Assembly (NCBI GenBank): GCA_001595785.1
Contig: LSSJ01000035.1
Coordinates: forward strand, 4,558 to 68,557
Length of the DNA stretch: 64,000 nt
DNA from: Euryarchaeota archaeon SM23-78
GTDB taxonomy: Archaea; Nanobdellota; Nanobdellia; Woesearchaeales; SM23-78
Reading direction: 5' to 3'
The notes below the pieces were generated by a model, which was given only the letters and a program-made list of their open reading frames with translations, was not told the origin of the DNA and searched no databases. Positions 28,907 to 62,650 of the stretch are shown here, in pieces (within the stretch, counting starts at the first letter, position 1; every line of letters starts with the position of its first letter). Both the position numbers and the translations under genes were made by a program.

Positions 28907-28965
28907 AATTTCACCTCCAGAGAAATTATGGTATTGCAAAAATTTTCAATTTTAGCAATTATCAT
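28903..28965 (-). CDS. 20-aa mini-ORF MIIAKIENFCNTIISLEVKL (leader cassette copy 2)
   Basis: Its ATG overlaps the NeuB2 stop (ATGA) and its TGA overlaps the GT2 ATG (ATGA). It shares a 58-nt perfectly identical core with 51874..51931, running into the first bases of the downstream gene. Confidence 0.5.
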   Translation of the reverse strand: MIIAKIENFCNTIISLEVKL

Positions 28966-30068
28966 AATTTCACCATTCCAAAGGTGATGTGGGTGTCAGC
29001 CTCAATATCCTGCATTGCTGGTTTCCCTATTAGTTCAGGAATCATTTTTGGGGGAAGCCCTCTGTTAGGTCCCTTTGTTGTGAGCATTTCTCGTGTTATC
29101 TTTTCCCCTTTTTTTATCTCTTTTGCTGCAACTATGGTTCTTCTTTTTTCATCAAAGATTTTTAGTTCGCCTGGAAGCACCTCTCTTTCTTGCTTTGACC
29201 ATTGAAGGCCTTTTTCTACTTTTCTTATGTTTCTTACTAATTTCTTTAATCCGTGTGGTTCAAGACTCATTGCATGGTCAAGGCCTGGGAGCGCTCTATT
29301 AATAGTATAATGCTTCTCTATCACTCTTGCTCCTAGGGCAACAGCCACAGGACCAAAGGTTATACCGTTCTCATGGTCACTGAATCCAACAGGCTTACCA
29401 AACTTTTTTAACCACTGAATCCATTGCAGGTTTGCATCCTCTGCTCTCATAGGATAACTTGAAACACAATGCAGAAGCACAACATCATATCCTTCCAGAA
29501 CCTCAAGAGCGTCTTTTACTTCTTGTTCAGTTGCCATTCCTACTGACATGATTATAGTTTTATTTGTCTTTGCTAATTCTTCTAATACAGGGATATCTGT
29601 TAATGTAAAGGCTGCTACTTTATACGCATCCACCCCTAGTTTTTCAAGAAATCTTACACTAGGAATGTCAAAAGGGGTTACTATAAAATCAATTTTTCCT
29701 TTGCAGTACTCTTTTAATTTTTTAAATTCTTCCCAGCTCAGTTCTATGTGTTCTCTTACCTTTCTATAAGTATCTCCCCACTCAGGAACATTGGTAAACA
29801 CCCTATCAAGCCTGTCTTTGGTAAGCATAGAATCAATATCTCTTTTCTGAAATTTAACAGCATCACAGCCAGCCTCAATGGCTACATCTATGAGCTTATA
29901 ACCCTTTTCTAATTCTCCGTTATGATTATTGCCTGCTTCGCCTATCACATAGGTGTGGCTTTCAGGTATTTCTTTAAACCCATTAACAATACTAACCCTT
30001 GTTTTCCTTGATTTTCTTGGACGACTCCTAGCCATAATACCCCTCTTAATTCTTATTAATCCTACCAA
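28962..30068 (-). CDS. neuB: nonulosonic acid synthase, NeuB family (copy 2)
   Basis: HTYVIGEAGNNHNGELEKGYKLIDVAIEAGCDAVKFQ..FSDHENG, plus a C-terminal SAF domain. The start may be Met12 (30035). Confidence 0.8.
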   Translation of the reverse strand: MVGLIRIKRGIMARSRPRKSRKTRVSIVNGFKEIPESHTYVIGEAGNNHNGELEKGYKLIDVAIEAGCDAVKFQKRDIDSMLTKDRLDRVFTNVPEWGDTYRKVREHIELSWEEFKKLKEYCKGKIDFIVTPFDIPSVRFLEKLGVDAYKVAAFTLTDIPVLEELAKTNKTIIMSVGMATEQEVKDALEVLEGYDVVLLHCVSSYPMRAEDANLQWIQWLKKFGKPVGFSDHENGITFGPVAVALGARVIEKHYTINRALPGLDHAMSLEPHGLKKLVRNIRKVEKGLQWSKQEREVLPGELKIFDEKRRTIVAAKEIKKGEKITREMLTTKGPNRGLPPKMIPELIGKPAMQDIEADTHITFGMVKL

Positions 30069-30179
30069 TTAAAGAGTGGATTTTTGTTTTATATATTTTA
30101 TGATATTCAATTAAACTTCGACTAAACTTATCTTCGACTAAACCTAACTTCAACCAAACTTATCTAAATAGCGTATTCT

Positions 30180-32114
30180 TCATAGAAATTTTTTAATCTC
30201 AGCCACTGCTCTTTCACTGGCCTTTCCATCATCAGAATAAAGGTATTTTCTTATGAATTTCTTTCTTAAAGAAGCATTCATGCCTTTATTCTTGAATAAA
30301 CAAGCTCTTACCCCTTTCCTTACCTCAGAAAGGTCTTTGTATGGCTTAATAAATCCTTCTCTTATATAGGTATGAGTTGGGTCAGTGCCCAATCCGACTA
30401 AGACTAATTTTTTATTCAGGGTTATACATTCATAAACAAGGGTTGAGGAGTAGGTTATTACCAGGTCAGAGGCATGTATTAATCTACTGCTGTTCTCATA
30501 CCTTGAAACCCTTGCATTAATATTAAACCTTTTTATTATTTTTTCTATTGTTTTCTTGTTTAAGATAGGGTCTCTTGGATGCATCTTTACAATTATATTT
30601 AGATTTTTAATATCTCTTAAACTCTTAAAAATCATACTTAAGTATTCATTTTCCCAAGGCTTTGCCCTGGTTATCACAGTTATTAGTCTCTCCTCTTTTT
30701 TAGCCTTGTATTTTCTTCTTATTTCTTGTAGGTTCTTTTTACCCAGGCTTTTAAGAAAATCATACTTGGGTGCTCCTATTATCTTAAGGTTTTGTTTGGG
30801 AAAATAATTCTTTTTTTGATACCATTCTCTTGTATATTCTCCCCATAAAAATTTCTTATTAGTGATAGGCCTCCATAAAGGGCTTTTTTTGTTAAGAATT
30901 TCTTTTATTGGAATCTGGGTTAGGTACATGTAGTTATCAAATATTTGCTCTCCTTCAAAGCAAAGAGAGGGTATGTTCCTAAAGTTGGCTTCGCTTATTA
31001 ATGCTCTTCCATAATAGTTTTTCTCATGATCTACTAGAACAACTTGGGGTTTTTCTTTTTCAATAACAGCTTTAGTGATGGCATAAACATCAGCGATGTA
31101 CCAAGCATAGGTTAAAAATATTTTTTTGAGTCTAGACCTAATTAAATCATAAAAACTTACTCCTTGGTATTCAAAACTCTCTTTAAAGCCTTTTTTATCC
31201 ATTTCCTTAAACTTCTTTTTTAAAAAACCAACCATTGTTTTAATATCTTTCAAGGTGTTTAAGGTGTAGTATGTTCCTATGAATTGAGCATCATATTTCT
31301 GTGGCATGTAGCGTTCTTTTAAGTTCTTAAACCCATCCAAGGTCTCAATCCTATCATACTCAACCATTTTATAAGGTATGCTTTGCTTTTCCATTACCTT
31401 AATAATAGGACCCCAAAAAACATCATTTCTATTTTCCTTATAACTCAATCTATCACTGGTTGATATCAGAATCTTTTCTGGTTTGGTTTGCTTGCAAAAC
31501 ACTTTTGCTACTAATACTCTTATAAGAATCCTGCTCTTAACATAGTTCCTTATGAGTAAGGGGTTATTAACTATTCTGAATAAAAAACTCTTTTTTTGCG
31601 CTTTAAGCTTCAAGTTGGTTATTCTTATTCTTTCTTTTCTACAGATTTTAGCAACAACTCTATTAAATGAGGTTTTTTCGTTCTCAATTACTACCTGGGA
31701 TGGCTTTTTTTCTTTTATTATCATGTTAATACAATCTATATAAAGTAATATTTTGGACAGAGGGCATTCATGACTAAGGTAATCTACATCATAATGAAGA
31801 ATAAATTCCATGGGATACCATAAACTCTTTCCTTGAAACACTAATTCTTGTGCAAAACTTTTATTATCATTCTTATTCCTTTTTTTAAAAGCCCATGCTT
31901 GTGCCCATCTCATCTCATAACAGTATCTAAATTGTATAGTTTTATCTTCAAGTTTCTTTATGTAATACCCGATAGTGTGATGTTTTTTCTGATTTTCCTC
32001 GCTAGAGAGATTATCAAGATAAATAATAACATCTTTTTTTCCTAGGTTTTTTATTAGTGCTTCATTCTTTTTCTGTAGAAAGAATAATCTTTTCATTTTT
32101 TCAATATTTTTCAA
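30180..32114 (-). CDS. large GT-B-fold TagF-like transferase (paralog of 6411..7760)
   Basis: KMHPRD..ASDLVITYSSTLVYECITLNKKLVLVG, ending DGKASERAVAEIKKFL. Confidence 0.45.
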   Translation of the reverse strand: MKNIEKMKRLFFLQKKNEALIKNLGKKDVIIYLDNLSSEENQKKHHTIGYYIKKLEDKTIQFRYCYEMRWAQAWAFKKRNKNDNKSFAQELVFQGKSLWYPMEFILHYDVDYLSHECPLSKILLYIDCINMIIKEKKPSQVVIENEKTSFNRVVAKICRKERIRITNLKLKAQKKSFLFRIVNNPLLIRNYVKSRILIRVLVAKVFCKQTKPEKILISTSDRLSYKENRNDVFWGPIIKVMEKQSIPYKMVEYDRIETLDGFKNLKERYMPQKYDAQFIGTYYTLNTLKDIKTMVGFLKKKFKEMDKKGFKESFEYQGVSFYDLIRSRLKKIFLTYAWYIADVYAITKAVIEKEKPQVVLVDHEKNYYGRALISEANFRNIPSLCFEGEQIFDNYMYLTQIPIKEILNKKSPLWRPITNKKFLWGEYTREWYQKKNYFPKQNLKIIGAPKYDFLKSLGKKNLQEIRRKYKAKKEERLITVITRAKPWENEYLSMIFKSLRDIKNLNIIVKMHPRDPILNKKTIEKIIKRFNINARVSRYENSSRLIHASDLVITYSSTLVYECITLNKKLVLVGLGTDPTHTYIREGFIKPYKDLSEVRKGVRACLFKNKGMNASLRKKFIRKYLYSDDGKASERAVAEIKKFL

Positions 32115-32132
32115 TCATTTTCTTATTATTTT

Positions 32133-32819
32133 TTACTTTTTCCCAGCCACAATGCATAAATGTTTGTAAACCCCAAACTTGGATAGAATTCTTGTGAAGA
32201 AATTCAGGTCAAATCCTTTATCTATATTTTTTATCTCAAGTTCCTCTTCCACCTCTTTTATTAGCTGTTTCATAGTATACTGGTTGGGATGAAATTCCTT
32301 ATTATTCATCCAGTTATTGCCTGTAAAATTGTAGATTAATTTCATAATCCAGCTAAAGTTAGGGCTTACTATTATGCACAAACCATCGTCTTTGAGCACC
32401 CTGTTAATTTCTTTGAGCATCTGCTTTATTTTTTTCTTAGAACCAACATGTTCTATCATGTCAAAGGAAAAGGCTATGTCTATAGAGCTTGATTTTACAG
32501 GGACCTTTTTTTCACATGACTGAATAAAAACCCTATCTTGCCCTATCTGGCTCTCTGCTATATGAGCAACTTTTTCTACTACTTCAACCCCGTAAATCGT
32601 GTGTTCTTTGTTAAGGGTTTGAATTATTGCCAAGAGGTCTCCAAAAGCGCATCCATACTCAAGGATTCTTCTGGGCTGGCTTAGATTCTTATATTTATGA
32701 ATAAATAATATCTGATGAAAGTTCCTTTCTAGGTTAAGATAAACATCTGCTTCTTTGGAGCGCCATTTAAGCATGCTCTCAGCATCCTGGTTCTTATATA
32801 TGATTCTTTTTTTACTCAT
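32133..32819 (-). CDS. class I SAM-dependent methyltransferase
   Basis: ILEYGCAFGDLL motif I. I take the start at Met24 of the listed ORF. That ATG is preceded by GGAGG and overlaps the upstream stop by 8 nt. Confidence 0.7.
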   Translation of the reverse strand: MSKKRIIYKNQDAESMLKWRSKEADVYLNLERNFHQILFIHKYKNLSQPRRILEYGCAFGDLLAIIQTLNKEHTIYGVEVVEKVAHIAESQIGQDRVFIQSCEKKVPVKSSSIDIAFSFDMIEHVGSKKKIKQMLKEINRVLKDDGLCIIVSPNFSWIMKLIYNFTGNNWMNNKEFHPNQYTMKQLIKEVEEELEIKNIDKGFDLNFFTRILSKFGVYKHLCIVAGKK

Positions 32820-33957
32820 TTGCTCCCCTCCTTTTTGCATACACCCTGTCCCATTCTTGCCTGAACTTGAAATGGTCAACAAGCTCATACATCTTTACAT
32901 TAAGAGGACTCTCAATTCTTGTCTTTTTTATCCCTCGTATACTTATAGGAACAGAGGTTACTTCTATATCATTAAAGCCTGCTTTTTTGTACCAATCTAT
33001 CACTTCTTCTATGGCTTGAAAATAATTATATGTTGCAGAGTAATGGTCATAGTTCCTTACCAGTCTTTCATGAAAATTCACTCCTACGTATGCGAATGGC
33101 GGAATAAACCTAAGAGCTTTGCCTAGGGGTCGTGTTATCTTGTTCTTTACAAGAGTACTTTCAATTGTTGACTTCAAAGCCATTAGATAAGCAAATCCAT
33201 GAATTATTGGATGAGGCATCCTGCTAATGATTTTTCTTATACCCAGCCATATCATCACACCAGTAGCATAAACTGTGTCCAGGAACAAACTCTTTTTATG
33301 AGCCTTATGATAAGCCCACTCCTTGTGATAAACATAGATTGCCATCATGCCTCCTACCTTGAGGTGCTTTGAAATCCTCATAAAAGTTGCTCTTGGATTA
33401 GGGGTGTGGTGTAGTACTCCATGAGATGTAACTACATCAAAGACTTCTTTTTTAAAAGGAAGATTCATCAAATCTGCTTGTATAAAATGAGTGTTAGGAG
33501 CATCATCAGTTCTTTTGGCTTCAAACACCTGCACTCCTAAGTCAACCCCTATGATTTCTTTGCAACCATGCTTAGAGAAATCTGACTTAATATGTCTTCC
33601 TGTGCCACACCCTGCATCAAGCACTATCTTTCCTTTGAAATGCTCTGGTCTAAACAAGGGTTCTCCTCCCAGATTCTTTAAGGCCTGCACCCAGAGCTTA
33701 TCATATACATCAATATCACTCTTTTTCCTAACCTTTTTCCACCAGTTCTCCCAGTTTTTTTGAGTTTTAGCAAAGTCTTTGAGTTTTTTCTCATCAAGAA
33801 TAACAGGTATGCCTTTAATAATAGGATACTTCTTATTACACTTCTTGCACACCAAAAAACTACTAACTATCTCTGTTCCTGTTTTTCTCTTAACCAGTGC
33901 CTTAAAATCACTCTTACAAAAAGGACAACACATATATTTTAACAGTCCTGGCTTCAT
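32812..33957 (-). CDS. Trm112-like zinc-ribbon + class I SAM methyltransferase
   Basis: CCPFCKSDF..CKKCNKKYPIIKGIPVILDE, then VLDAGCGTGRH. Confidence 0.7.
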   Translation of the reverse strand: MKPGLLKYMCCPFCKSDFKALVKRKTGTEIVSSFLVCKKCNKKYPIIKGIPVILDEKKLKDFAKTQKNWENWWKKVRKKSDIDVYDKLWVQALKNLGGEPLFRPEHFKGKIVLDAGCGTGRHIKSDFSKHGCKEIIGVDLGVQVFEAKRTDDAPNTHFIQADLMNLPFKKEVFDVVTSHGVLHHTPNPRATFMRISKHLKVGGMMAIYVYHKEWAYHKAHKKSLFLDTVYATGVMIWLGIRKIISRMPHPIIHGFAYLMALKSTIESTLVKNKITRPLGKALRFIPPFAYVGVNFHERLVRNYDHYSATYNYFQAIEEVIDWYKKAGFNDIEVTSVPISIRGIKKTRIESPLNVKMYELVDHFKFRQEWDRVYAKRRGANE

Positions 33958-33963
33958 CTTGCT

Positions 33964-35127
33964 TTACACATATAATTTTTCATACTTGCTCAGCACTTTG
34001 CTCCACTCAAACCCCTTTATTTTTCTTATTCCTTGCTTTGCAATTCTTTCTCTTAGGTTTTTATTTCTTAACAGCTTGCCAATCTTTGCTGTAAAATCAT
34101 TAACATTAGTTCGTTTACATAAAAAACCTGTTATACCATTCTCTAATAAGTCAGGTATGCAGGGAATGTTGCTGGCTACACAAGGCACTCCATAGCTCAT
34201 GGCTTCCATTACCACTCCTGGCAAGCCTTCTCCTTGTGATGGTAATAAGAATATATCACTTGCTTGATAAAGTTTGTGCATGTCTGTTCTCCAGCCCAAG
34301 AACAAAACCTTTTTCTCAAGCCTTAACTTTTTTACCTGATTTTCATACTCTTTTCTATTAGGGCCATCGCTTACAAGCAAGAACACAACATCTCTTCTTC
34401 TAAGATTATTAGCTATTCTTATCAGCTTATCAACGCCTTTCCTAGGTATTAGCAAACCCACAAACAAGATAATTCTTGTACTTGGCTTTAGATTCAATTC
34501 TTTGCTTATGCTGGCTTTTGATTGGAGTTTACTCTTGTTATCATACTTCTTAAAGTCAATACCAGTGGGTATAACCCTTATTTTCTGCTTAGGCACACCT
34601 GCTCTTAAGGCAAAGGGTAGCATGCTCTCCCCATAAAGAGTGATTATGCTTGGAGTTCCAAAGAGTAACCAGCCAAACAGCTTATTATAAATCTTGAACA
34701 TAGTATTCCAAAATCTTCCCATACTAAAACTATACCCTGGCACAGTATCCATGGTGAGGATTAGTTTTTTTTCTGGAAAAAACACTCTTTTGGTTAGCAA
34801 GATGAAAAAGCTGGTTAGATAATAAGGAACCCACATATGGATTATATTATTATTCTTAATAGCCTTCCAAGTATTGATGCAGAACATGGGTGTTATTGGT
34901 AAGGGCTGCTCTGCACTCACAAAAGGCGGATTAATAATAGAATAAGTATAGATTCTGCTCTTCTCAACCTGCTTGCAATGATGCAGGGAAGTATGCCTTC
35001 TTTTAAAAAGTATTTTAGGAATCAAAAGACTAGTCTTAAACCCTTTCTTTGTAAGTTTTCTGATTATCTCAGACACTGGTCTCTTAAGCAGGACAGGTGG
35101 GTTTACAAAGCATATTTTTGGTTTCAT
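33964..35127 (-). CDS. family-4 (GT-B) glycosyltransferase
   Basis: EGLPGVVMEAMSYGVPCVASN (E-x7-E). I moved the start to Met63 (MKPKICFVNPP) because the upstream 62 codons overlie a structured GC-rich element. Confidence 0.75.
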   Translation of the reverse strand: MKPKICFVNPPVLLKRPVSEIIRKLTKKGFKTSLLIPKILFKRRHTSLHHCKQVEKSRIYTYSIINPPFVSAEQPLPITPMFCINTWKAIKNNNIIHMWVPYYLTSFFILLTKRVFFPEKKLILTMDTVPGYSFSMGRFWNTMFKIYNKLFGWLLFGTPSIITLYGESMLPFALRAGVPKQKIRVIPTGIDFKKYDNKSKLQSKASISKELNLKPSTRIILFVGLLIPRKGVDKLIRIANNLRRRDVVFLLVSDGPNRKEYENQVKKLRLEKKVLFLGWRTDMHKLYQASDIFLLPSQGEGLPGVVMEAMSYGVPCVASNIPCIPDLLENGITGFLCKRTNVNDFTAKIGKLLRNKNLRERIAKQGIRKIKGFEWSKVLSKYEKLYV

Positions 35128-35142
35128 TTTTATTACTTGTTT

Positions 35143-35269
35143 CAAAAGCCATACTCGTCTTACCATAACCGTACACTTCGTATACGAACATGGTAAGCCT
35201 CGCCGTGCCTGCCATTGCTGTCTCACTTCGTTCGACATCAATGACAACAATGGCACAGACGGTCTTTTG
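35143..35269 (-). ncRNA. GC-rich three-helix structured element, copy 1
   Basis: The architecture has P1 caaaag/cttttg, P2 tgccattgttgtc/gacagcaatggca and P3 cttaccatgttcg/cggttatggtaag. It is homologous to 41861..41998 with compensatory changes. Confidence 0.45.
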
Positions 35270-35287
35270 AAACTTAAGTGAATCTTT

Positions 35288-35626
35288 TCATTTCTTCTTC
35301 TTAACCTTTGCACTGAAACTAATCCTCCTCACAATTGAGGTAATCTTTTTTTCCATGTTCTCTATCTTTACATACAATCTGAAGATTAAGTAGAAGATTA
35401 CAATAATGCTGATATAAACTATCAAGTCTATTCCTCTGGTTATTCCAAGTGAAGGTGAAATTGTGCTTGTTATGCCAGGAATAATAGAAACGACTATCAC
35501 AGCAATCCACAGTACAGCCCAGAAGATGAACTCGTTCTTGGTTAAGCGGTTATCCTTGAATCTTAGAAAAGCCCTGCTTAGCGCAAATAATGAAAAAATG
35601 ATTATTAATATCTGGATTATCTCCAT
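35288..35626 (-). CDS. DUF2304-like small membrane protein
   Basis: 112 aa and 3-4 TM helices, with GITRGIDLIVYISIIVIFYLIFRLYVKIENMEKKI matching my recollection of this GT2-associated family. Confidence 0.55.
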   Translation of the reverse strand: MEIIQILIIIFSLFALSRAFLRFKDNRLTKNEFIFWAVLWIAVIVVSIIPGITSTISPSLGITRGIDLIVYISIIVIFYLIFRLYVKIENMEKKITSIVRRISFSAKVKKKK

Positions 35627-35809
35627 TTTTACCCCCTACTGTGCCCTTTCACTCTTTTCCTCTTTATATTTTTTATGAAGCTTGATTAGGTTTTATGGTT
35701 TTATGAATGTTTAAGACGTGTGTGAGTGCGAAAACTATTTAAACCATTCCCTTTATCTCTTCTCTAATAATCATTAAAATTTGTTAAAGATTTTGGAGAG
35801 GGTGATTTT

Positions 35810-38785
35810 TTGAGCAAGGAAGAAAGTAAGCATGAACATAAGACTATGCATAGCCCTGAGGAAGAAGAAGTAAAGCTTGATTTTAAAAAGTTCAAAGGCT
35901 TTTTTTCTGATAAGAGATTTTTCAATAACTACACTCTTCTAGTTATTCTCTTGCTTGTATGCATTTTTTTCAGTGTTTATTTCAGGTCTTTTCCTGCTAG
36001 TCTGCCAATAACAGATGAATGGGCACAAAATGCTGCTATTAACTCTATTCGTAACAACATAGCTGCTCAGATTAATCAGCAGTATCCTAATCTGCCTGAT
36101 GCTAATAAGCAACAACTCATTAATGAGCAGTTGCAGATAATTCTTAAAGACCAAGGAGCGAATATTGAGGCTCAGATAAAAAGCACCTCTGATTATTTCC
36201 GGTCCAGGCTTCAGAATGATGAAGGCCAGACCTATCTATTAGCCATTGATCCTTATCAGCACTTAAGAAGAGCTGAGAACATATTACTGAATGGGCATCC
36301 AGGAGATATTCTAAAAGATGGTAAGCCTTATAATACTCGCCAGTTTGCTCCTGTAGGCAAGCCAATCACGCCTGATCTTCATCCTTACATAATATATTAT
36401 TTGTACAGGTTCCTAAGAATATTTAACCCCAACATCTCAATGCTAGCAGCAGCTTTCTGGGTGCCTGTACTTATATCTGCGCTCTCAGTAATCCCTGCTT
36501 TTTTTATTGCTCGAAGAAGAGCAGGCTTGTTCGGTGCCTTTGTTGCAGGTATGCTAGTGGCAATTCATCCTGTGTTTATTGGAAGAACCGCAGGTGGTTT
36601 TAGTGATACAGATGCCTATGTTGTTTTCTTTGCTCTGTTAGTAACCTGGTTATTCATTGAGGGCTTTGAATCTGATAACCTAGTAAAAAAGGTTATTCTC
36701 ACAGTTGTTGCAGGTTTATTTGTTGGGGTGTTTAGTTTTGCCTGGGATGGTTGGTGGTATGTTTTTGACTTGTTACTAGGATTATTGATTATATACATAG
36801 GCTATGTGGTGTTAAAGTCAATTATTAACAAGGAATCTTTTAAGAAAATATTTTCAAATATTAATCTCAGAGGAGCATTTATAGTCTTAATAATATTCTT
36901 GGTGTGCTCAGTAGCCTTTGTTCCTTTACTAACAGGTGGAAGAGAGAGTATTAATGAGGCTTTCAGAGGACCCTTAGCAAGAATCAAGATAAAGGTTGCT
37001 GCTCATGATGATTATTGGCCTAATATTCAGACCACAGTAGCAGAGCTTAACCCTATTTCTATTAATGGAGCAATCAGACAGGTGGGTGGAAAGTTATTGT
37101 TTTTTATAGCTGCTCTAGGAGTTGTGCTTAGCCTTATAAAAGCTGATGATCTTAAGAAAAAGGATTATCTCTTTTTAGGAGCGTCTTTTATTTATCTTCT
37201 TATCATGCTATCCAATTCTGTGCTTGGATTAGAACCTATCACTTATCTTATCCTGCTCGCTATTCCTATTCTAGTAGGTTTTGTTCTCTTACTTAAGGAT
37301 AAGCGTGAGATTGATATTAAGTATGCAATTCTATTAATGTTATGGTTTATTGGTTCATTATATGCTAGTACCAAGGGAACCAGGTTTGTGCTTCTTCTAG
37401 TCCCTGCTTTTGGTATTGCTATGGGTATAGGACTTGGACTTGCTCATAGAATGCTGACTAAGCTGATTACCGAAGAGTTCAAACTAAAGAAAGTGGTTGC
37501 TGCTGTTGTTCTGGCTATTCTTTTAGGAGTCTTTGTTGTTAACCCTATAGGTTTTGTTAATAAGCCTAATAATCCCACCCATATCATGGACATGGCACGC
37601 TATACTGCTGAGAGGGAAGTGCCAAGCATGAATGATGGTTGGTGGGAGTCTCTTACAAGGATTAAGCAAAACTCAAGTGAGGATGCTATTATTAATTCCT
37701 GGTGGGATTTTGGTCACTGGTTTAAGTATGTTGCTGACAGACCAGTAACTGTTGATGGTGCGGGCCAGGATTATTTCTTGGCTCATTGGATGGGAACCAT
37801 TCTTATCTCTAATAATGAGGAAAAAGCTGTTAAAACTTTGAGAATGCTTGACTGCGGAAGCAGAGAATCATACTTTACTCTTCTTAAGGATACTGATGAT
37901 ATTATGCTCTCAGTTAATCTTACCAAAACTATTATTATGCAGGATGAGGATGAGGCAAGAGAGACCCTTGAGAAAGCAGGCATAAGTAAAGCTGCAATAG
38001 ATAAGACTCTTGATTATGTATTTTGCGACCCTCCTGATAATTTCCTTATTACAAGTGAGGACATGGTTGGTAAGGCAGGTGTGTGGGGGCATTTTGGGAG
38101 CTGGGACTTTAACAAAGCATTTATCTATATTAATTCAAGGAACAAAAAAGCAGAAGAAGCCATACCCTTATTAATAGAAGAACTCGGCTTATCAGAGGAA
38201 GATGCAACTGAGTACTACTATGAAGTCCAAGCCTTGGCATCAGAAGAAGAAGGAAATACTTGGATTGCTCCCTGGCCTAATTATCTTACAGGAAGCTGGT
38301 CTGGTTGCAAGGTGAGCAAACCCGAGCAGGATGAAGACGAGAACGCTACAGACACCATTACTAGTGCTGGCACTATGACTTGTAATATTAACAGAGCAAT
38401 TAGACAGGACAACCAGCAGAACCTGGTTATTGAAAGAGTAGTGCTTGACTTGGATAATCCTGAGAAATCAACCCTTATAGTGGGTTCTTATGATAGAAGC
38501 TCAGGCTACAGGCTTGGAGGAGGAAATGCTGTGCCTTCCTCGTTTGTGCTCTACAAGGAAGATGGTGTTATTGAGAGGATTAAGATGCCTAACTCAACCT
38601 TTCCTTATGATGTGGTGATTGACATGGAGAACACCAGAGCCTTGCTCACAGATCCTTTGCTCTCAGAATCATTATTCACCAAGCTCTTTTATCTTGACGG
38701 CAGATACAATACTCGTTTTGAACTCTTCAGTGACCTTACCACTGTTAATGGCCAGAGAGTTACTATTTGGAAGGTTAAGTGGTGA
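35810..38785 (+). CDS. aglB: archaeal oligosaccharyltransferase (STT3 homolog)
   Basis: 991 aa with about 13 TM helices plus a C-terminal domain. The WWDFG (WWDxG) motif is encoded at 37700..37714, and the first-loop acidic motif is GGFSDTDAY. TTG start after GGAGAGGGTGA. Confidence 0.85.
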   Translation: MSKEESKHEHKTMHSPEEEEVKLDFKKFKGFFSDKRFFNNYTLLVILLLVCIFFSVYFRSFPASLPITDEWAQNAAINSIRNNIAAQINQQYPNLPDANKQQLINEQLQIILKDQGANIEAQIKSTSDYFRSRLQNDEGQTYLLAIDPYQHLRRAENILLNGHPGDILKDGKPYNTRQFAPVGKPITPDLHPYIIYYLYRFLRIFNPNISMLAAAFWVPVLISALSVIPAFFIARRRAGLFGAFVAGMLVAIHPVFIGRTAGGFSDTDAYVVFFALLVTWLFIEGFESDNLVKKVILTVVAGLFVGVFSFAWDGWWYVFDLLLGLLIIYIGYVVLKSIINKESFKKIFSNINLRGAFIVLIIFLVCSVAFVPLLTGGRESINEAFRGPLARIKIKVAAHDDYWPNIQTTVAELNPISINGAIRQVGGKLLFFIAALGVVLSLIKADDLKKKDYLFLGASFIYLLIMLSNSVLGLEPITYLILLAIPILVGFVLLLKDKREIDIKYAILLMLWFIGSLYASTKGTRFVLLLVPAFGIAMGIGLGLAHRMLTKLITEEFKLKKVVAAVVLAILLGVFVVNPIGFVNKPNNPTHIMDMARYTAEREVPSMNDGWWESLTRIKQNSSEDAIINSWWDFGHWFKYVADRPVTVDGAGQDYFLAHWMGTILISNNEEKAVKTLRMLDCGSRESYFTLLKDTDDIMLSVNLTKTIIMQDEDEARETLEKAGISKAAIDKTLDYVFCDPPDNFLITSEDMVGKAGVWGHFGSWDFNKAFIYINSRNKKAEEAIPLLIEELGLSEEDATEYYYEVQALASEEEGNTWIAPWPNYLTGSWSGCKVSKPEQDEDENATDTITSAGTMTCNINRAIRQDNQQNLVIERVVLDLDNPEKSTLIVGSYDRSSGYRLGGGNAVPSSFVLYKEDGVIERIKMPNSTFPYDVVIDMENTRALLTDPLLSESLFTKLFYLDGRYNTRFELFSDLTTVNGQRVTIWKVKW

Positions 38786-38788
38786 AGC

Positions 38789-38967
38789 TTTTCGCCCGCT
38801 CGCTACGTTCGCTCCCCAAAGCCAGCAAAAGCAAAGCTTTTGCGGTGCCAGAAATTGCATTTCTGAGCACTTGCAAAAGGCAAGCGGTTACAAAAAGCCA
38901 AAGGCTTTTTGAATGTTCAAATCAAAATTTGAATATTCCTAGCACAAAAACGTGCCGGAACCCCTTA
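38789..38967 (+). repeat. left arm of an approximately 180-bp inverted repeat (multi-hairpin intergenic module)
   Basis: Near-identical blocks are shared with the reverse complement of 47450..47632: 35 nt at 38876..38910, 33 nt at 38935..38967, and a 25-nt GC box at 38789..38813. Confidence 0.8.
38892..38910 (+). terminator. hairpin plus T5 run (aaaaagcc-aaa-ggcttttt), candidate aglB terminator
   Basis: 8-bp stem followed by oligo-T, 107 nt downstream of the aglB stop. Archaeal termination at oligo-T is established; its use here is inferred. Confidence 0.35.
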
Positions 38968-38974
38968 GAAAAAA

Positions 38975-39829
38975 ATGAAAATCAAATACTCTGTGTTAAT
39001 TCCTGCGTATAACGAGGAGAGAGCTATTCTTGATACTATTAAGGATATAAAGCAAACTCTTAAGGGCTTTGCCTATGAGATAATTGTTATTAATGATGCA
39101 TCTAAGGATAGGACAGGTCTTATTCTTAAGAAAATTCAGGGAATAAGAGTGATTAATCATCCTGTTAACAAAGGTTATGGTGCTTCCTTGAAGTCAGGGC
39201 TTAGAGTGGCTCAGGGTGAGTGGATAATAATAACTGATGCTGATGGTACTTATCCTGTTAATGATATTCCCAGATTATTAAAGCACACCCCAAGGTATGA
39301 CATGGTTGTGGGTGCAAGAACTGGCAGAAAGACTTATGATCCTTTTCTTAGAAGGCCTGCTAAGTGGATGCTTAAAATTGTTGCAAAGATTGTTACTGGT
39401 ATCAGGATTCCTGACCTGAACTCAGGCTTAAGGGTTTTTAGAAAAGAGATGGCTCTTAGGTTCTGGAATCTTTTTCCTTATGGCTTTAGTTTTACAACAA
39501 CCCTTACGGTTGCTGCTCTTGCTAATAATTATAATGTAAAGTATATTCCGATTAATTATTTTAAGCGTAAAGGCAAGTCAAGCATCAATCCTATAAAGGA
39601 TTTTATTGGTTTTAACTTCTTGATTTTTAGAATTGCATTGTACTTTGCTCCTCTTAAGTTCTTTGTTCCTGCTAGTTTTCTTCTCTTCCTAGCAGGCGTG
39701 GTTAAGGGAGTGATGGATTTTTCAAATAATAGCAGAATTGGCATCTTTGCAGCTCTGGTTGTTCTTTTCAGCATTCAAATCTTCTTTTTTGGCTTATTAG
39801 CAGACCTGGTTAATAAGAGGATGAGTTGA
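38975..39829 (+). CDS. dolichyl-phosphate hexose synthase-type GT2 (Dpm1/AglD-like) with C-terminal TM helices
   Basis: KYSVLIPAYNEERAI..VINDASKDRT..ITDADG, plus two C-terminal TM helices. Confidence 0.75.
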   Translation: MKIKYSVLIPAYNEERAILDTIKDIKQTLKGFAYEIIVINDASKDRTGLILKKIQGIRVINHPVNKGYGASLKSGLRVAQGEWIIITDADGTYPVNDIPRLLKHTPRYDMVVGARTGRKTYDPFLRRPAKWMLKIVAKIVTGIRIPDLNSGLRVFRKEMALRFWNLFPYGFSFTTTLTVAALANNYNVKYIPINYFKRKGKSSINPIKDFIGFNFLIFRIALYFAPLKFFVPASFLLFLAGVVKGVMDFSNNSRIGIFAALVVLFSIQIFFFGLLADLVNKRMS

Positions 39830-39922
39830 TATTGATAAATAGAATATTTTATCCAAATAATAAGTTATTAAATAAATGATATGTATGTTAGATGATATGT
39901 ACTTTTATTAAGAAGAGGTAAC

Positions 39923-41854
39923 ATGGTAAATACAAAAAAAGTAGAGGAGTCAGATGAATTAGAAGGGTCTGGGGTAGGGAATAACAGTTTTTTGCAAAAA
40001 CTTAAGCTTTTTTTTAAAGGACTTAGCTGGGAGGATTATGTTCTTATAGGATGCATTATTATTATTTTGATTCTACAGGCTAACTTGATCGGAAGTTTCA
40101 AACAGCTACCTAGCCCTTTGTATGGAGGAGATTACTATCATCAAATGGGGGGAATAAACCATGTGAAATATGGGGGTGATGCATTTAAGAGTTTTTCAAC
40201 TAATGACCCAGTTCCTAGTTATTTTCCAATCTACTCACTTATTACAGGTAATATTGCTCGTTTTTTCAATATCTCTGCAATGCAAGCAATGTTTGCTTTT
40301 TCTTATGTACTTACAATAATAGCTCTTTTACTTGCTTATTGGTTAGGGTTTTTATTGTTCAGAAACAAGTCAGCAGCCTTAGGAGCAACTCTGCTCTTCT
40401 TTTTTTTCACAAGAATTCCCATCATTAAGTACCGCCAGTTCACAGAGGTAACATTTTTCCTTTTTTTCTTTGTCTGCCTTTACTATGTACTAAAAACCAG
40501 GGACTGGAAATGGGCTCTTGCAGCTGGTCTTGCTTTTGGAATAGGTAGCTTGTCCCATGGAAGCATGTTCTTGTACCTCCTACTTTTCATGCCAGTTCTT
40601 TTAGTATACATGCTACTAGGTCAGTATGTTAATTATGATAAGAGAAAGTTTTCTTTTAACAAACAAGAATTTAAGGAGCAATGGAAAAAGAACTTGGTCT
40701 TGTTTCTTATCATTCTGGTCATAGGTTTTGCTCTTGCCTTAGTTTACTGGTATCTTCCTTTAAGTTATATGGCCTCTAGTGACCCTGCTCTTAGGGAAAT
40801 AGTTGATTTAAGAATATTGCAAGGAAGAGGAGATTTTTATTCTAATCTTATGGCCAGAGCAGGATGGGTTTTTTCTGCGGTCTGGGGTAGTTTTATTTAT
40901 CAATATTCTTTTGTTTTTGTAGCCTTTACTATTCTAGGTATTCTTGCCTTATTTTTTGTTAAAAAATGGTCAAGAACAATAAAATTTATTTTATTAATAA
41001 CCATTAGCACTATCTTTATCTTCTGGCATTTCCTTATAACTCAACCTTTGCTAGGGGCACAGGTGCCTGTTCAGGAGATGAGAACCTTTATCCTTCCTTT
41101 ACTGATGTTTATGTTCTCAGGTTTATTTCTCTCAATAATTAGAAATACTGTGAAGAATAAACTCTTAAAGCTGGGGATAAGCGTATTTGTCATAATCCTA
41201 GTTTTATTAACTAACTTTTTTATATATAATACTTACATAAAAGAAGATAGATGGATACAGGTTGGTCAAAGTGGTTCTCTTCCAGGCCCTCTACTAGGCG
41301 CAGCTGACTTTATAATCCAGAACACAGATGTGAATGATGCAATTCTTACCAATCATGAGCTTGGGTTTGCAATTAATGCTCTTACTGGAAGAAAGATAGT
41401 CAGCATTCCAAGAGGACACCTCTCTCCTGTTACAGATTCTGTTCAAAGAGATGCAGATCTGGCTGTTATGCTGTACGGCTCTAATAATGAGCAGAGAGAG
41501 AAGTTATTTAAGGATTATAATGTCAAGTACTTGTTCTGGGATTCCTACTGGCTAAGAGGAGAGTTTATCTTTGACCAGGATGCTCAGGTAGTTGGCTTAT
41601 TTGACCCTATAGAAGTTCTTGACAAGCCTGATTGGAGGGAATATCTAGATGCAAGTAACGTAACCTATGAGCCCATCCATACAGAGCTTAACCCTAATAA
41701 AAGAGGCAAGGCAAACCAGTTTGATGTGCTTGTAGTAATGCCAAGAATGAACATCACCCACCCATGGCATCCCTCCCTTAACAAGTATTTAGAGTTAAAA
41801 TTCCAAGCACCACAGAATAATCCTAGTATTAAGGTTTACAAGGTTAATGTTTGA
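39923..41854 (+). CDS. large polytopic membrane protein with C-terminal soluble domain (GT-C-like architecture)
   Basis: 643 aa and more than 10 TM helices. The first loop has GGDYYHQMGG, and the gene is in a glycosylation context. I recognised no diagnostic motif. Confidence 0.35.
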   Translation: MVNTKKVEESDELEGSGVGNNSFLQKLKLFFKGLSWEDYVLIGCIIIILILQANLIGSFKQLPSPLYGGDYYHQMGGINHVKYGGDAFKSFSTNDPVPSYFPIYSLITGNIARFFNISAMQAMFAFSYVLTIIALLLAYWLGFLLFRNKSAALGATLLFFFFTRIPIIKYRQFTEVTFFLFFFVCLYYVLKTRDWKWALAAGLAFGIGSLSHGSMFLYLLLFMPVLLVYMLLGQYVNYDKRKFSFNKQEFKEQWKKNLVLFLIILVIGFALALVYWYLPLSYMASSDPALREIVDLRILQGRGDFYSNLMARAGWVFSAVWGSFIYQYSFVFVAFTILGILALFFVKKWSRTIKFILLITISTIFIFWHFLITQPLLGAQVPVQEMRTFILPLLMFMFSGLFLSIIRNTVKNKLLKLGISVFVIILVLLTNFFIYNTYIKEDRWIQVGQSGSLPGPLLGAADFIIQNTDVNDAILTNHELGFAINALTGRKIVSIPRGHLSPVTDSVQRDADLAVMLYGSNNEQREKLFKDYNVKYLFWDSYWLRGEFIFDQDAQVVGLFDPIEVLDKPDWREYLDASNVTYEPIHTELNPNKRGKANQFDVLVVMPRMNITHPWHPSLNKYLELKFQAPQNNPSIKVYKVNV

Positions 41855-41860
41855 ATTATT

Positions 41861-41998
41861 GAAATTCTGGTCGTCTGTGCCATTATTGCCACTTATTTCT
41901 GTAGGAAACTGTAGGAAATAATGGCATGGCCAAGATGGAGCTTACCACGTTCCCATACAAAGCGTGGGGTTGTGGTAAGCGGAGTAGGCCAGAATTTC
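41861..41998 (+). ncRNA. GC-rich three-helix structured element, copy 2
   Basis: P1 gaaattctgg/ccagaatttc, P2 tgccattatt/aataatggca and P3 cttaccacgttccc/ggggttgtggtaag. It lies between convergent genes. Confidence 0.45.
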
Positions 41999-43416
41999 TA
42001 AATTCTAATCTCATCAACAACAAAAACAATTTTTTCTTTCTCATTGATATCTTCCTTAAAGAACTTGCCAGCTTCTTTTCTTAGAGCCTTTGCAACTGCA
42101 GGATTTTTTTTAACAATATTCTTTACTTCCTTTGGATCTTTTTTCAAGTCATACAGCTCTTCAACCTCTCCATGTACATAACCGCAGCGCTTGCACTTCC
42201 TAAAACCTTTTTGAGGAAAGATATATTTATATCTTTCAGAACGAATGCACCTCTTCTTTTGTAAATAATTTTCTTCTGCAAATACGTACTTTCTTTTTTC
42301 TTTTCCCTGCATTAGCTTTACAAGGCTCTTACCATTATCTTTGTCAAATCTTTTTCTTATTCCAAGAATATCAATAACAGTAGGAGTTATGTCAAGGTTC
42401 ATTGCGAGATTTTTCACAACTTTTCCTTTACCAAGTTTTGGATATCTTATGATTAAAGGTATCTTTAGGTTTTGTTCATACAATCCGTGGTGGTCAAATA
42501 ATATGTTATGTTCCACAAGGCTCTCGCCGTGATCTGCTGTTATAAATATGATTGTATTGTCAAGTATTTTTTTTTGTCTTAAAGAAGTGGTTATTCTTCC
42601 TATCATCTCATCGCAATAGTTTATACTTGCATGATACCTGGCTATTACTTGACGTGCATCATTTTGATACCCTGTGAGAGCCTCATAAAAGCTGCGCACC
42701 TCTTTGTCTTTGAGCTGATTTATTAGGTGCTTCATAGGAATAAAGGGTTGGTTCTTTTCAAAGAATTTTTTTTGAAGAGCAGAAGAACAGTTGTAAGGTG
42801 CGTGCGTGTCCCAGAAATGAATGAACATAAAGAAAGGATGGTTTTTGTTATTCTTAATTATTGACTCTGCTTTTTTTGCAAGCTCAAGACCGTCTGAATA
42901 AGGTTTGAATTTATTGGTTAGCCAGTTTAGTTTTTCAGAAAAATAAAGTCTTACCATTAGTTTATGCAGAGGCTTTATCTTAGACAGCATTTTTTCAAGA
43001 TTTTGAAAAAACATTTTTTTCTCTTTTATTTCTGTTATTTTAAGGTAATAATCATAACCTGTTTTATGCCATCTGCCCAACCAGTCAAGGCCAAAGGTAT
43101 GGTAGCTTTGCTCTTTTAGGATGGATTGCAACATTTGGTTTTTTCTTGCAAAAAAAGTGCTGATTTCAGTCTTTGTAACTTTCTCTGCTTGGTTATGAAT
43201 TCCATGCCTAGTCGGGTGCTTGCCGGTCATGATAGAAGTAATAGAGGCGTCAGTGGTATTAATTGAGGTAAAAGCATTCTCAAATCTTATGCCTTCCCTT
43301 GCCAGTTTGTCAATATTAGGAGTGGTTTTTAAGTGAAAACCATAGCAGCTAACACTCTGGGCGCGCATAGCATCAACTAGGAAGATGATAATATTGGGTT
43401 TGTTAGTTTGTTTCAT
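41998..43416 (-). CDS. sulfatase-fold (AlkP superfamily) enzyme lacking the C/S-x-P-x-R formylglycine motif
   Basis: PNIIIFLVDAMR..TTPNIDKLAREGIRFENAF..TTDASITSIMTGKHPTRHG..FITADHGE. Thr occupies the position of the FGly Cys/Ser. Confidence 0.65.
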   Translation of the reverse strand: MKQTNKPNIIIFLVDAMRAQSVSCYGFHLKTTPNIDKLAREGIRFENAFTSINTTDASITSIMTGKHPTRHGIHNQAEKVTKTEISTFFARKNQMLQSILKEQSYHTFGLDWLGRWHKTGYDYYLKITEIKEKKMFFQNLEKMLSKIKPLHKLMVRLYFSEKLNWLTNKFKPYSDGLELAKKAESIIKNNKNHPFFMFIHFWDTHAPYNCSSALQKKFFEKNQPFIPMKHLINQLKDKEVRSFYEALTGYQNDARQVIARYHASINYCDEMIGRITTSLRQKKILDNTIIFITADHGESLVEHNILFDHHGLYEQNLKIPLIIRYPKLGKGKVVKNLAMNLDITPTVIDILGIRKRFDKDNGKSLVKLMQGKEKRKYVFAEENYLQKKRCIRSERYKYIFPQKGFRKCKRCGYVHGEVEELYDLKKDPKEVKNIVKKNPAVAKALRKEAGKFFKEDINEKEKIVFVVDEIRI

Positions 43417-44396
43417 TTTTTTATGAACATCGCATCCTTCACAAACACTTCAGGTCCCACCTTATTCACCAGGAAGATGATAACTGCAAGTATATATCTT
43501 ATAATTAACATCACTCCAAATATTGTTCCTGAAGCAATAGTTGATATACCTACTGCTTTGAACAGATAAACACCAGAGGTTTCTCTTATTCCAAGGCCAC
43601 TCACACTTACTGGTATTAATGATACAAGGGTGCTTAGTGATATTATTCCGATGACGTGACCCAGGGAGACCCTCACTCCCAGAGCATCAAACAAGATTTT
43701 TACTCCAATGAATAGTATTAACCAGCGTATCGCAGTGACTCCAAAGTTAAGAGCAACTTGTTTTTTTCTTTTAAAAAAGAAGGTCTTAATGTCTTTGTCA
43801 AATAAGTCTACTGTCTTATGACTCTTTCTAAAAATCCTTTTGGTAATAATGTTTCTTACCTTAGTGTTAAGAGCGAGTAAGAGGAGAAGAGTTCCAATGA
43901 TTGCAATTATTAGTGCCAAGGTCAAGGCTTGCTGAAAAGGCAGGTAGAAGAACATTGCAAACCCTCCTATTATGAAGATTAGTGCAAAGGTAATTATTTT
44001 ATCAGCAATGCTAATAGCAGAGGTTTTTCCTAGGTTCATGTGCTTTTCCTTGTTAAGAAAAAAGATGATTGAGAACTCGCCCAGGTTGCCAGGGGTGAAC
44101 TGCCCTACTGCCCAGCTCATAAGATAGTACTGCACTATCTTTTTGAATTTTACTTTTTTGCCTAGGCTGTCAATGATTATCTTTAAGCACACACTTTCAA
44201 GAGCAGTGTAGATAAAGAACAGGATTGCAAATATTATTATCGGAAGGATTCCTATTGTGCTTATAGAACCAAAGGTTGCTTTAAATCCAAGCTTGAGATA
44301 AAGGATTATAAAAATGGCTATTCCAATAATTATCCTTCCAATCCTAAGCCATAACCTGGTTTTTTGTTTAGACATTTGCCTGTTTAACCCATTCAA
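43413..44396 (-). CDS. UPF0104/LPG-synthase-TM (flippase-like) membrane protein
   Basis: 327 aa with 8 TM helices and an N-terminal RLWLRIGRIIIGIAIFIILY, typical of this family. The likely start is Met8 (44375). Confidence 0.5.
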   Translation of the reverse strand: MNGLNRQMSKQKTRLWLRIGRIIIGIAIFIILYLKLGFKATFGSISTIGILPIIIFAILFFIYTALESVCLKIIIDSLGKKVKFKKIVQYYLMSWAVGQFTPGNLGEFSIIFFLNKEKHMNLGKTSAISIADKIITFALIFIIGGFAMFFYLPFQQALTLALIIAIIGTLLLLLALNTKVRNIITKRIFRKSHKTVDLFDKDIKTFFFKRKKQVALNFGVTAIRWLILFIGVKILFDALGVRVSLGHVIGIISLSTLVSLIPVSVSGLGIRETSGVYLFKAVGISTIASGTIFGVMLIIRYILAVIIFLVNKVGPEVFVKDAMFIKK

Positions 44397-45303
44397 TTGT
44401 TGCTCTTAAGCCTTGTTCAAAATCATACTTGTTTTTATAACCAAGCATCTTTTCTGCTTTTGAGTTGTCTGAACAAGCTCTTCTAAGCTCTCCTTTTCTC
44501 TCAGGTGCAAATAAGGGTTTTATCTCTTTGTTTAGATTTTTGTTTATGAGCCTTAGAATCTGATTAACCCTGATTTCTTTTCCAGAACCAATATTCATAG
44601 GCTCTCCAAAGCCTGCTTTAGCTTTGCATGCGAGTAGATTTGCTTTTACAATGTCTTTTACAAATACAAAATCCCTGGTTTGATTACCATCTCCATATAT
44701 AATTGGTGTTTCATTGTTAAGTACTTTCTTTATGAATAATGGAATTACTCCTGCGTACTGGGACTCAGAGCTTTGTCTAGGGCCAAAAACATTAAAATAT
44801 CTTAGGATAAAGGTTTTTAATTTATGCTTCTTATAATATTCATCACACAGCTTTTCTGCTTTAAGCTTGAACTGAGCATAAGGAGATAATGGTTCTGGTT
44901 TCATGCTTTCTGTCTGAGGAATCTTATCTGTGTTTCCATAAACAGCGCATGAAGAAGAAAAAATAACTCTCTTAACATTATTAAGCCTTGCAGCTTCAAG
45001 AACATTTCTTGTGCCTTCCAGATTAACTTTTCTGTAAAGCTCTGGTTTTTCAACAGATTCAATAACAGAGATTAGGCTTGCATGGTGCAGAACAAAATCA
45101 CAGCCTTCCAACTCTTTTTTTAAAAGTTCAAAATCAGTTATATCTCCTTTAACAAAGCTTATCTGATTCAAGACATCTCTTAATACTTCTTTTCTTCCAA
45201 TTGAAAGGTTATCAATAACAACAACATCTGCTCCTATTTTCACTAATTCTTCTACTAAATGGCTTCCTATGAACCCTGCTCCCCCTGTAATAACATATTT
45301 CAT
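44368..45303 (-). CDS. NAD-dependent sugar epimerase (GalE/WbpP-like SDR)
   Basis: KYVITGGAGFIGSHL..SSCAVYG..YAQFKLKAE (YxxxK). Confidence 0.8.
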   Translation of the reverse strand: MKYVITGGAGFIGSHLVEELVKIGADVVVIDNLSIGRKEVLRDVLNQISFVKGDITDFELLKKELEGCDFVLHHASLISVIESVEKPELYRKVNLEGTRNVLEAARLNNVKRVIFSSSCAVYGNTDKIPQTESMKPEPLSPYAQFKLKAEKLCDEYYKKHKLKTFILRYFNVFGPRQSSESQYAGVIPLFIKKVLNNETPIIYGDGNQTRDFVFVKDIVKANLLACKAKAGFGEPMNIGSGKEIRVNQILRLINKNLNKEIKPLFAPERKGELRRACSDNSKAEKMLGYKNKYDFEQGLRATIEWVKQANV

Positions 45304-45305
45304 TC

Positions 45306-62341: not shown

Positions 62342-62365
62342 TCACATAAATAAGAATTTTATTAA

Positions 62366-62628
62366 ATGCGCGCCTGGAGGTGGATAAGCTGAATAAGCAT
62401 TAGCTTACCCCATTCTTTCCTCCGCTCCGCAACCCTCAAAGCACCCTTGCCTAAGCTTAGGGCTGCTCTGTTCCCAGCCTGACCCGGTTCACAAAGATAA
62501 GAGCCAATGAGGACAAAGCATCGACGGTCCGAACAGGACTAATACTTAAGGAGCAAACCGCCCCCCAGGCTTCGGCCCCCACAATATCCATTTTGGGTAA
62601 CAGGCGAGGATAAGCCGCCCGGCCTAGC
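62366..62628 (-). ncRNA. signal recognition particle RNA (7S/SRP RNA); ends approximate
   Basis: The minus strand reads GGGUCAGGCUGGGAACAGAGCAGCCC, which is the helix-8 signature (AGG loop, GGAA tetraloop, AGCA loop). It is a GC-rich island of about 260 nt with a T-run at the 3' end. Confidence 0.75.
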
Positions 62629-62650
62629 AGAGGAGAGGAAGAATTGGTTA

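Follow-up and report, generated by a model that had tools for sequence, protein, structure and literature searches.

A dispersed, probably MITE-like repeat family with a conserved three-way junction fold in Woesearchaeota

We found that two structured intergenic features of an archaeal N-glycosylation cluster are very probably old copies of a MITE-like family of non-autonomous transposable elements in Woesearchaeota (DPANN archaea). Both lie in the window, that is, the whole 64-kb stretch of DNA that was analysed. An element of this MITE type would in all likelihood be moved by a transposase acting in trans and cutting in a staggered fashion. The original prediction had placed a structural RNA element inside a glycosyltransferase operon; neither a discrete structural-RNA gene nor a cis element of that operon was supported, and what emerged instead is a repeat scattered in many copies that has terminal inverted repeats (TIRs) and target-site duplications.

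Results

Two homologous copies in the window

Copy 1 (35143-35269, minus strand) and copy 2 (41861-41998, plus strand) are homologous, as had been proposed, with a mean column identity of 80% in the alignment. Single-sequence RNA folds returned all of the predicted helices P1, P2 and P3 in both copies (Table 1). The fold energies were -60.0 kcal/mol for copy 1 and -67.4 kcal/mol for copy 2, with z-scores of -6.9 and -7.8, respectively, and 0 of 200 dinucleotide shuffles were as stable. Two double substitutions in P3 that had been noted earlier, U-A to C-G and G-C to C-G, were verified (A3 columns 87/113 and 92/108), as were the conserved G·U pairs that fix the strand; the polarity is the one originally named, minus for copy 1 and plus for copy 2. 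The description of the feature as a GC-rich island was right in kind but overdrawn in degree, since the contrast is modest (G+C of 0.47-0.48 in the element versus about 0.30-0.40 nearby). Weaker outer pairing extends P1 to approximately the full-element limits given in Table 1. The ends of the window copies are degenerate, consisting of 10-14 bp stems with bulges. Within the 64-kb window, a covariance model (CM) detected these two copies and no others.

Table 1. Features of the two element copies in the window
Feature	Position	Strand	Basis and remarks
Copy 1, full element	35135..35279	-	MFE fold; weak outer P1 ACUU..GUUUCAAAAG / CUUUUGAAAC..AAGU
Copy 1, CM match	35143-35269	-	92.8 bits, E = 1e-32
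Copy 1, P1 5' strand (CAAAAGACC)	35261..35269	-	A3 columns 1-9
Copy 1, P2 arm	35202..35260	-	GUCUG..., UGCC/UGUC repeats, CAAUGGCA; can pair in two ways
Copy 1, P3 hairpin with invariant G·U / U·U / U·G motif	35158..35198	-	Fold and alignment
Copy 1, junction strand J3/1 (CGAGUA; GGAGUA in most copies)	35152..35157	-	Near-invariant A2/A3 columns
Copy 1, P1 3' strand (UGGCUUUUG)	35143..35151	-	A3 columns 128-136
Copy 2, full element	41853..42005	+	MFE fold; outer P1 GAAUU...AAUUC
Copy 2, CM match	41864-41995	+	107.9 bits
Copy 2, P1 5' strand (GAAAUUCUGGUC)	41861..41872	+	Fold and alignment
Copy 2, P2 arm	41873..41936	+	Fold, alignment and constrained folds
Copy 2, P3 hairpin	41940..41980	+	Fold and alignment
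Copy 2, junction strand J3/1 (GGAGUA)	41981..41986	+	Alignment
Copy 2, P1 3' strand (GGCCAGAAUUUC)	41987..41998	+	Fold and alignment

Both copies sit in a large N-glycosylation and cell-surface cluster (window 28962-46004), whose gene order is largely kept in relatives. It encodes NeuB-like and CDP-glycerol transferase-like proteins, two methyltransferases, GT4, DUF2304, AglB/STT3 (991 aa) and GT2, together with a 643-aa PMT_2-like membrane protein, a sulfatase, LPG_synthase_TM, an epimerase and a thioredoxin-like protein. The best homologues of the window AglB come from Candidatus Woesearchaeota/Nanoarchaeota MAGs. The archaeal origin of the window is confirmed by an archaeal SRP RNA at 62362-62634 on the minus strand, which scored 125.3 bits (gathering score 96.5).

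An open reading frame (33964-35313) runs across copy 1, and the earlier view that it is non-coding there was borne out: its start is over-extended to an upstream GTG. The GT4 domain protein begins at the ATG at 35127 (homologues and orthologues have 385-399 aa), so that copy 1 is intergenic and fills most of the 160 nt between the DUF2304 stop (35288) and the GT4 start. The distance to the GT4 start codon is about 15 nt from the core, or 8 nt if the weak outer P1 pairing is counted. Copy 2 is located exactly between the convergent genes for the 643-aa membrane protein and the sulfatase. The membrane protein ends ...VNV* in the window and ...VNV(N/D)* in relatives, the TGA in the window being supplied by the first bases of the element, and the sulfatase stop codon sits within the other end of copy 2. 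Furthermore, a JGI metagenome contig with an identical AglB gene (L033) begins exactly at copy 1 (L033:1-147 = window 35141-35287), which suggests that the assembler stopped at the repeat, as is typical of assemblies.

A dispersed family of 16 copies

Pattern scans and the CM revealed 14 further copies beyond the window, giving 16 in total. An exact-pattern scan of a genome collection with one genome per species yielded 6 true copies, the other 15 matches being due to chance. Four of the six were on separate contigs of the Woesearchaeota MAG MP5_5_87, one was in FT1_083 and one in a MAG labelled Methanosarcinales. A stricter pattern applied to JGI metagenomes found 7 stretches, two of which (L022 and L023) are identical in sequence. 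The CM, built from 14 sequences, recovered all pattern-found copies and added two, a divergent one at L027:5285-5407 (58.9 bits) and another at L037:11965-12084 (110.8 bits); the later model alignment comprised 16 sequences. With the L037 addition as the fifth, MP5_5_87 carries at least 5 copies on 4 contigs. Well-preserved copies are about 143 bp long and the window copies about 145-153 bp, and the element has no ORF of its own.

The Methanosarcinales-labelled copy (L007:1-117) neighbours a gene for GTP-dependent PEPCK and occupies the terminus of a 7.6-kb contig whose bin is named 'uncultured Methanosarcinales archaeon'; it may reflect a wider host range or mis-binning. L027:5285-5545 holds a tandem pair 18 nt apart, of which the member at 5285-5407 is highly divergent and yet keeps the fold and the G·U/U·U/U·G motif. 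Both of these copies are flanked, and separated from each other, by similar AT-rich repeats, TTATTATT(A/C)AAC and AAAACTTAT, which suggests nested or adjacent insertion.

The Rfam search proposed with the original prediction was carried out, and the element matched no family; tests for tRNA and SRP RNA were likewise negative. At the gathering threshold of Rfam 15, whose families include RNase P, C/D, H/ACA and 5S RNAs as well as known ribozymes and riboswitches, there was no match on the element. At E <= 10 copy 1 had no overlapping match, and the sole matches of copy 2 and the L001 copy were to miRNA-type hairpins, far below threshold. ARAGORN reported nothing on the element, BLAST of a full element against plasmids and phages gave no match, and a pattern scan of viral contigs detected no copy.

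Inverted repeats, target duplications and empty sites

The TIRs measure 16-21 bp, usually start GGC... and form the outer part of helix P1. The ends are perfect over at least 15-16 nt in L017, L025, L026 and L018, and in L037 they match over 21 nt except for one conserved G·A, which is the third pair of P1 counted from the junction. The repeat reads GGCTGTGGTGCAATCCTAGGC in L001 and L017, GGCCTCATAGAAATCCTAGGC in L037 (and in L009 with one mismatch), GCCTTATAGAAATCC in L014 and L018, GGCTCTGTCCTAAATC in L025 and GCACCGTTAGGTTAAG in L026; GGCTGTGGTGCAATCC and GGCCTCATAGAAATCC are also among the subfamily ends. The tips GGCTGTGGTGC, GGCCTCATAGA, GGCTCTGTCC and GCACCGTTAG illustrate a near-total difference between subfamilies in which complementarity is nevertheless kept, even within one genome. 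About 70 outer-P1 tip pairs were read, and they are pure Watson-Crick, with no G·U. The tips are less conserved than the core, and their divergence between subfamilies is not explained by a single transposase specificity.

Direct repeats flank several copies. Flush repeats were found in L017 (8 bp, TTAAAAAC), L009 (8 bp, TGAAATTT), L025 (9 bp, GATTAAAAG) and L037 (7/8 bp, (G/A)TTTTTCC), and offset ones in L026 (8 bp) and L024 (13 bp). Same-length pseudo-elements placed at every position of the same loci gave a background of 5e-5 per position for flush 8-mer repeats. The insertion targets are AT-rich intergenic DNA, of which 8-9 bp are duplicated. No clear target-site duplication was detectable for either window copy. 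An 8-bp duplication at copy 1, AAATGAAA, is not claimed: its 3' repeat overlaps sequence that is apparently ancestral in L031.

In a separate locus, L028:2200-2400, the element lies inside a hydrogenase-type operon and has AATGATTAGA, the overlapping stop/start of the flanking genes, on both sides. This insertion appears to have duplicated the gene junction, and both flanking genes therefore stay intact. The ends of this copy adjoin the purine-rich imperfect repeats AGAAGAAAA and AGAAAGAAAA.

Comparison with related loci revealed empty sites. In L017, from MP5_5_87, the element stands between a tRNA-intron endonuclease gene and a FaeA-like gene. It is absent from L034, L035 and L036, whose FaeA-like proteins are 66-67% identical and in which the promoter-like TATATAAACTTCTTCAG by the insertion point is conserved. 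When the element and one duplication are subtracted from L017, 67 nt are left, and the gap in L035 is 72 nt. In the window cluster, DUF2304 and GT4 are 160 nt apart, compared with 39 nt (L030) and 29 nt (L031), and in L029 another gene stands between the two. Downstream of the orthologue of the 643-aa ORF the gap is 27 nt in L030 (634 aa) and 43 nt in L031 (679 aa). A CM scan of four syntenic AglB loci (L029-L032, 84 kb, 63-72% AglB identity) found no element. The surroundings of copy 2 differ in gene content, with a sulfatase and LPG_synthase_TM in the window versus two EamA genes in relatives, and a methyltransferase that relatives have between GT2 and the 643-aa gene is missing from the window. 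Because the relatives are only 63-72% identical at the protein level, no exact single-copy target sequence was recovered. For the window copies, family membership together with these empty sites in relatives of 63-72% AglB identity points to a probable mobile origin.

The element fits the MITE definition as summarised in PMC3184786: it is small and multicopy, has no transposase ORF, carries TIRs and duplications, and is matched by empty sites. In the mechanism that we favour, a DDE-type transposase from an insertion sequence would bind the repeat tips in trans and make a staggered cut. The window copies would represent two separate insertions, each at a gene boundary of the N-glycosylation cluster, copy 1 between DUF2304 and GT4 and copy 2 at the convergent stop codons of the 643-aa and sulfatase genes. 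An inverted-repeat search of the window and an end-motif search of all loci analysed returned no partner insertion sequence or matching ends, and Pfam analysis of 20 neighbouring proteins gave no transposase and no reverse transcriptase.

A conserved core fold

The core between the repeats, about 105 nt, forms a three-way junction on one strand only. P1 is the closing helix, of 9-21 bp; its innermost pair joins the C of CGUCUG with the G after GAGUA, and, counted from the junction, the third position is usually occupied by a purine·purine mismatch. P2 begins GUCUG/CAGAC, and its arm holds two or three direct UGCC(A)UU repeats and one complementary AAUGGCA. The junction strands are purine-rich, with G-R-A leading from P2 to P3 and GGAGUA from P3 to P1. 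P3 has the sequence CUUACCAnG-U-UCC...GG(G)-U-UnUGGUAAG, in which the G·U, U·U and U·G positions are invariant in 16 of 16 copies (in A5, GU in 16 at pair 101/125 and UG in 15 at pair 103/123) and the adjacent pairs covary.

A covariance model had also been proposed as a check, and the further copies supported the helices. In the 16-sequence model alignment, 94.9% of cells showed standard pairing, compared with 28-44% for slid partners. Changes on both sides were seen in 23 of 44 pairs among the 16 copies, against 4-8 in slid controls, and no column shuffle attained the observed values. In P1, 8 of 9 pairs covary. There were 59 G·U/U·G cells versus 6 A·C/C·A cells, indicating strand-specific pairing, and the named strand was more stable than its complement in 14/14 copies. 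The junction and proximal stems of the G·U-rich core are near-identical across subfamilies, and the distal stems covary. Thus the variable tips, free of G·U, behave as DNA-level inverted repeats, whereas the covarying, G·U-rich core behaves as an RNA or single-stranded structure. The loops showed no conservation in the alignments, so no conserved antisense or guide sequence is evident.

Constrained folds revealed two mutually exclusive pairings in the P2 arm, no more than 4 kcal/mol apart in 14/14 copies and 1.7 kcal/mol apart in copy 1. In the first, which RNAalifold prefers and which shows covariation, the first UGCC repeat pairs with AAUGGCA. In the second, the GGC before CAGAC is taken up by the first GCC, and AAUGGCA by the second repeat. 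The divergent L027 copy (L027a) favours the second through a swap of GCC/GGC to GGC/GCC. The predicted bistability could represent a conformational switch or be a by-product of the repeated UGCC motif.

Resemblances to known structures and systems were also considered. A hammerhead-like topology was rejected by eye: the junction lengths in cyclic order are about 7, 0-1, 3 as against 7, 3, 1 in the hammerhead, and CUGANGA is missing. No consistent register was found for a K-turn or loop-E reading of the junction. Both 5S rRNA and a SINE-like derivative of a known RNA were dismissed, as Rfam gave no signal. A template/variable repeat pair of a diversity-generating retroelement was set aside as well, since the differences are not confined to adenines and there is no reverse transcriptase.

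Since compensatory changes occur among lineages and the core is more conserved than the tips, selection acts on a single-stranded form of the element. This form would most likely be RNA produced by read-through or from neighbouring promoters. With low confidence, we suggest that the RNA fold serves the element or the host transcript. It might be a compact 3'-end or processing structure by which insertions are rendered tolerable or transcripts stabilised, a role put forward for ERIC and bcr1; it might be a regulatory fold inherited from the parent insertion sequence; or it might be a structure used during transposition.

Neighbouring genes, promoters and alternative explanations

The neighbours of the copies are functionally unrelated and include genes for translin, tRNA-intron endonuclease, PEPCK, glutamate dehydrogenase, hydrogenase and TctA, among others. 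Seven copies, both window copies included, lie in sense orientation just downstream of a gene, and four or five are antisense to both neighbours, among them L009, L017, L027 and the second L037 copy. A TATA-like box is present 13-25 nt upstream of the 5' end in about 8-10 of the 12 non-window copies, and downstream in only 3 of 12. A TATA..AAATCTTT-like motif ends 9-11 nt from the 5' terminus of the element in L009, L025, L037, L022, L001, L018, L017 and L027, and it is the reverse complement of the BRE/TATA-like AAAGATTT..TATA of the divergent neighbour. Overall, about 9 of 13 copies have a promoter-like motif at 9-11 nt from their 5' end. The L017 box is the neighbour's promoter and predates the insertion, as seen against L034 and L035; in L009, L027 and L037 the divergent gene starts 25-35 nt beyond the box. 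Where it could be checked, then, the box is a pre-existing promoter of the divergent neighbour and is therefore not carried by the element. The constant spacing could result from targeted integration, from selection in very short intergenic regions, or from use of the neighbour's promoter for divergent sense transcription. Coding sequence lies directly against the window copies, which therefore lack a promoter upstream, and no consistent oligo-T terminator follows the element among the copies.

An unlikely alternative to a MITE with a selected fold is that the core is itself a functional RNA housed in interchangeable inverted-repeat shells. It would then be a mobile non-coding RNA gene, the integration of which may target the upstream edge of BRE/TATA. 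If this were true, the product could be a regulator or cofactor of the transposase, a self-processing RNA or a bistable switch.

We regard as rather improbable a family of independently transcribed, trans-acting small non-coding RNA genes, for which dispersal would be secondary and the inverted-repeat shell would merely have moved the core. Such genes would account for a core that outdoes the tips in conservation, with junction nucleotides and the G·U/U·U/U·G motif invariant in 16/16 and covarying helices, and for the strong strand asymmetry. The excess of TATA-like boxes upstream over downstream would also fit, but the boxes that were checked belong to the divergent neighbour and are older than the insertion. 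The window copies are without an upstream promoter, a consistent oligo-T terminator is absent, and the unconserved loops offer no evident guide or antisense sequence.

The fold might also be used as single-stranded DNA in transposition, or the element might spread through a SINE-like RNA intermediate, with an enzyme that reads structure rather than end sequence. This is very improbable. It would explain why the P1 tips vary by subfamily and stay complementary, and it suits a strand-specific fold with a core better conserved than the tips. Single-strand transposons of the IS200/IS605 family have neither target duplication nor terminal inverted repeats, however, and the present element has both. 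As for a SINE-like route, the element lacks a 3' tail and any internal promoter logic suited to archaea, its neighbourhood contains no reverse transcriptase, and the outer tips, pure Watson-Crick without G·U, are unlike an RNA helix.

The presence of both window copies inside the N-glycosylation cluster, the short distance from copy 1 to the GT4 start and a variable P1 around a conserved three-way junction, as in riboswitch aptamers, recall a riboswitch, leader, attenuator or 3'-UTR element that would regulate the glycosylation operon in cis. This reading is scarcely credible and is contradicted by the data, and the idea of an RNA dedicated to this operon was not upheld. Other copies adjoin genes of unrelated function, copy 2 has no downstream gene on its own strand, several copies are antisense to both neighbours (those named above), and the same operon in related genomes lacks the element at the orthologous positions.

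The data equally contradict, and leave next to no chance for, a 6.6-kb composite transposon or invertible segment with the two copies as its ends: they are inverted and bracket exactly four genes (DUF2304, AglB, GT2 and the 643-aa gene), but relatives show the same gene order without any element, the copies are only about 70-80% identical, and all other family members are solitary or tandem.

Discussion

The kind of element described here, a MITE or structured intergenic repeat, is already known, and bacterial bcr1 is its closest analogue. Our literature search found no description of this element family, and no paper that reports a Woesearchaeota MITE or brings together DPANN, transposable elements and non-coding RNA. 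In the Bacillus cereus group, bcr1 is a dispersed, non-coding repeat of about 155 bp with short direct repeats and a distribution that is not conserved; its closing stem and two independent stem-loops are upheld by compensatory changes at the RNA level, its transcription was shown experimentally, and it is regarded as a special class of mobile sequence (PMC3184786). The archaeal element is like bcr1 in size, dispersal, flanking direct repeats and compensatory fold. It differs in its long perfect inverted-repeat tips and 8-9 bp duplications, whereas the direct repeats of the bacterial bcr1 span 5 bp, and the two elements are not similar in sequence.

Other small repeats offer further parallels. 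Chunjie has 21-bp terminal repeats and 9-bp direct repeats (PMC3184786). Like Chunjie, Nezha, Correia and ERIC (PMC3184786), the Woesearchaeota element is small, with TIRs, duplications and multiple intergenic copies; filled/empty polymorphism and very stable predicted RNA folds, often at gene 3' ends, are also shared. In typical MITEs, the terminal repeats are the best conserved part and the whole element is one long hairpin. Here, by contrast, the tips are variable, the interior is a conserved three-way junction with RNA-type covariation, and the host belongs to DPANN.

The IS6/IS26 family and the MITEs MITEBth2 and MITEHarch3 have an 8-bp target duplication and the consensus GGTTCTGTTGCAAA (PMC6807381). 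Several of our subfamily ends likewise start GG with G at position 7, and the duplication here is 8-9 bp. In a manual alignment, GGCTCTGTCC... and GGCTGTGGTGCAA... agreed with GGTTCTGTTGCAAA (G1, G2, G7) at about 10 of 14 positions. The fit extends to two of at least 5 subfamilies only, and ends such as GGCCTCATAGA and GCACCGTTAG do not conform, so the resemblance to IS6/IS26 may serve as a lead only. ISL3, IS1595 and IS256 also pair GG-starting ends with 8-9 bp duplications.

What is new here is that the core is conserved above the tips, that the three-way junction carries a non-canonical motif without variation, and that one arm is bistable. The bistable arm and an RNA-like core under tighter constraint than the tips to which a transposase would bind suggest that a DNA transposon may have an RNA-level activity tied to it. 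In bacteria, a connection of this kind has been discussed for bcr1 and ERIC, but none is shown for archaea. The findings also carry a warning for RNA-gene discovery in AT-rich archaea, in that covarying GC-rich islands can be mobile repeats, and the element probably accounts for at least one assembly break (contig L033). Mobile elements of DPANN are barely described, and this family provides a concrete and easily modelled marker of genome dynamics in Woesearchaeota.
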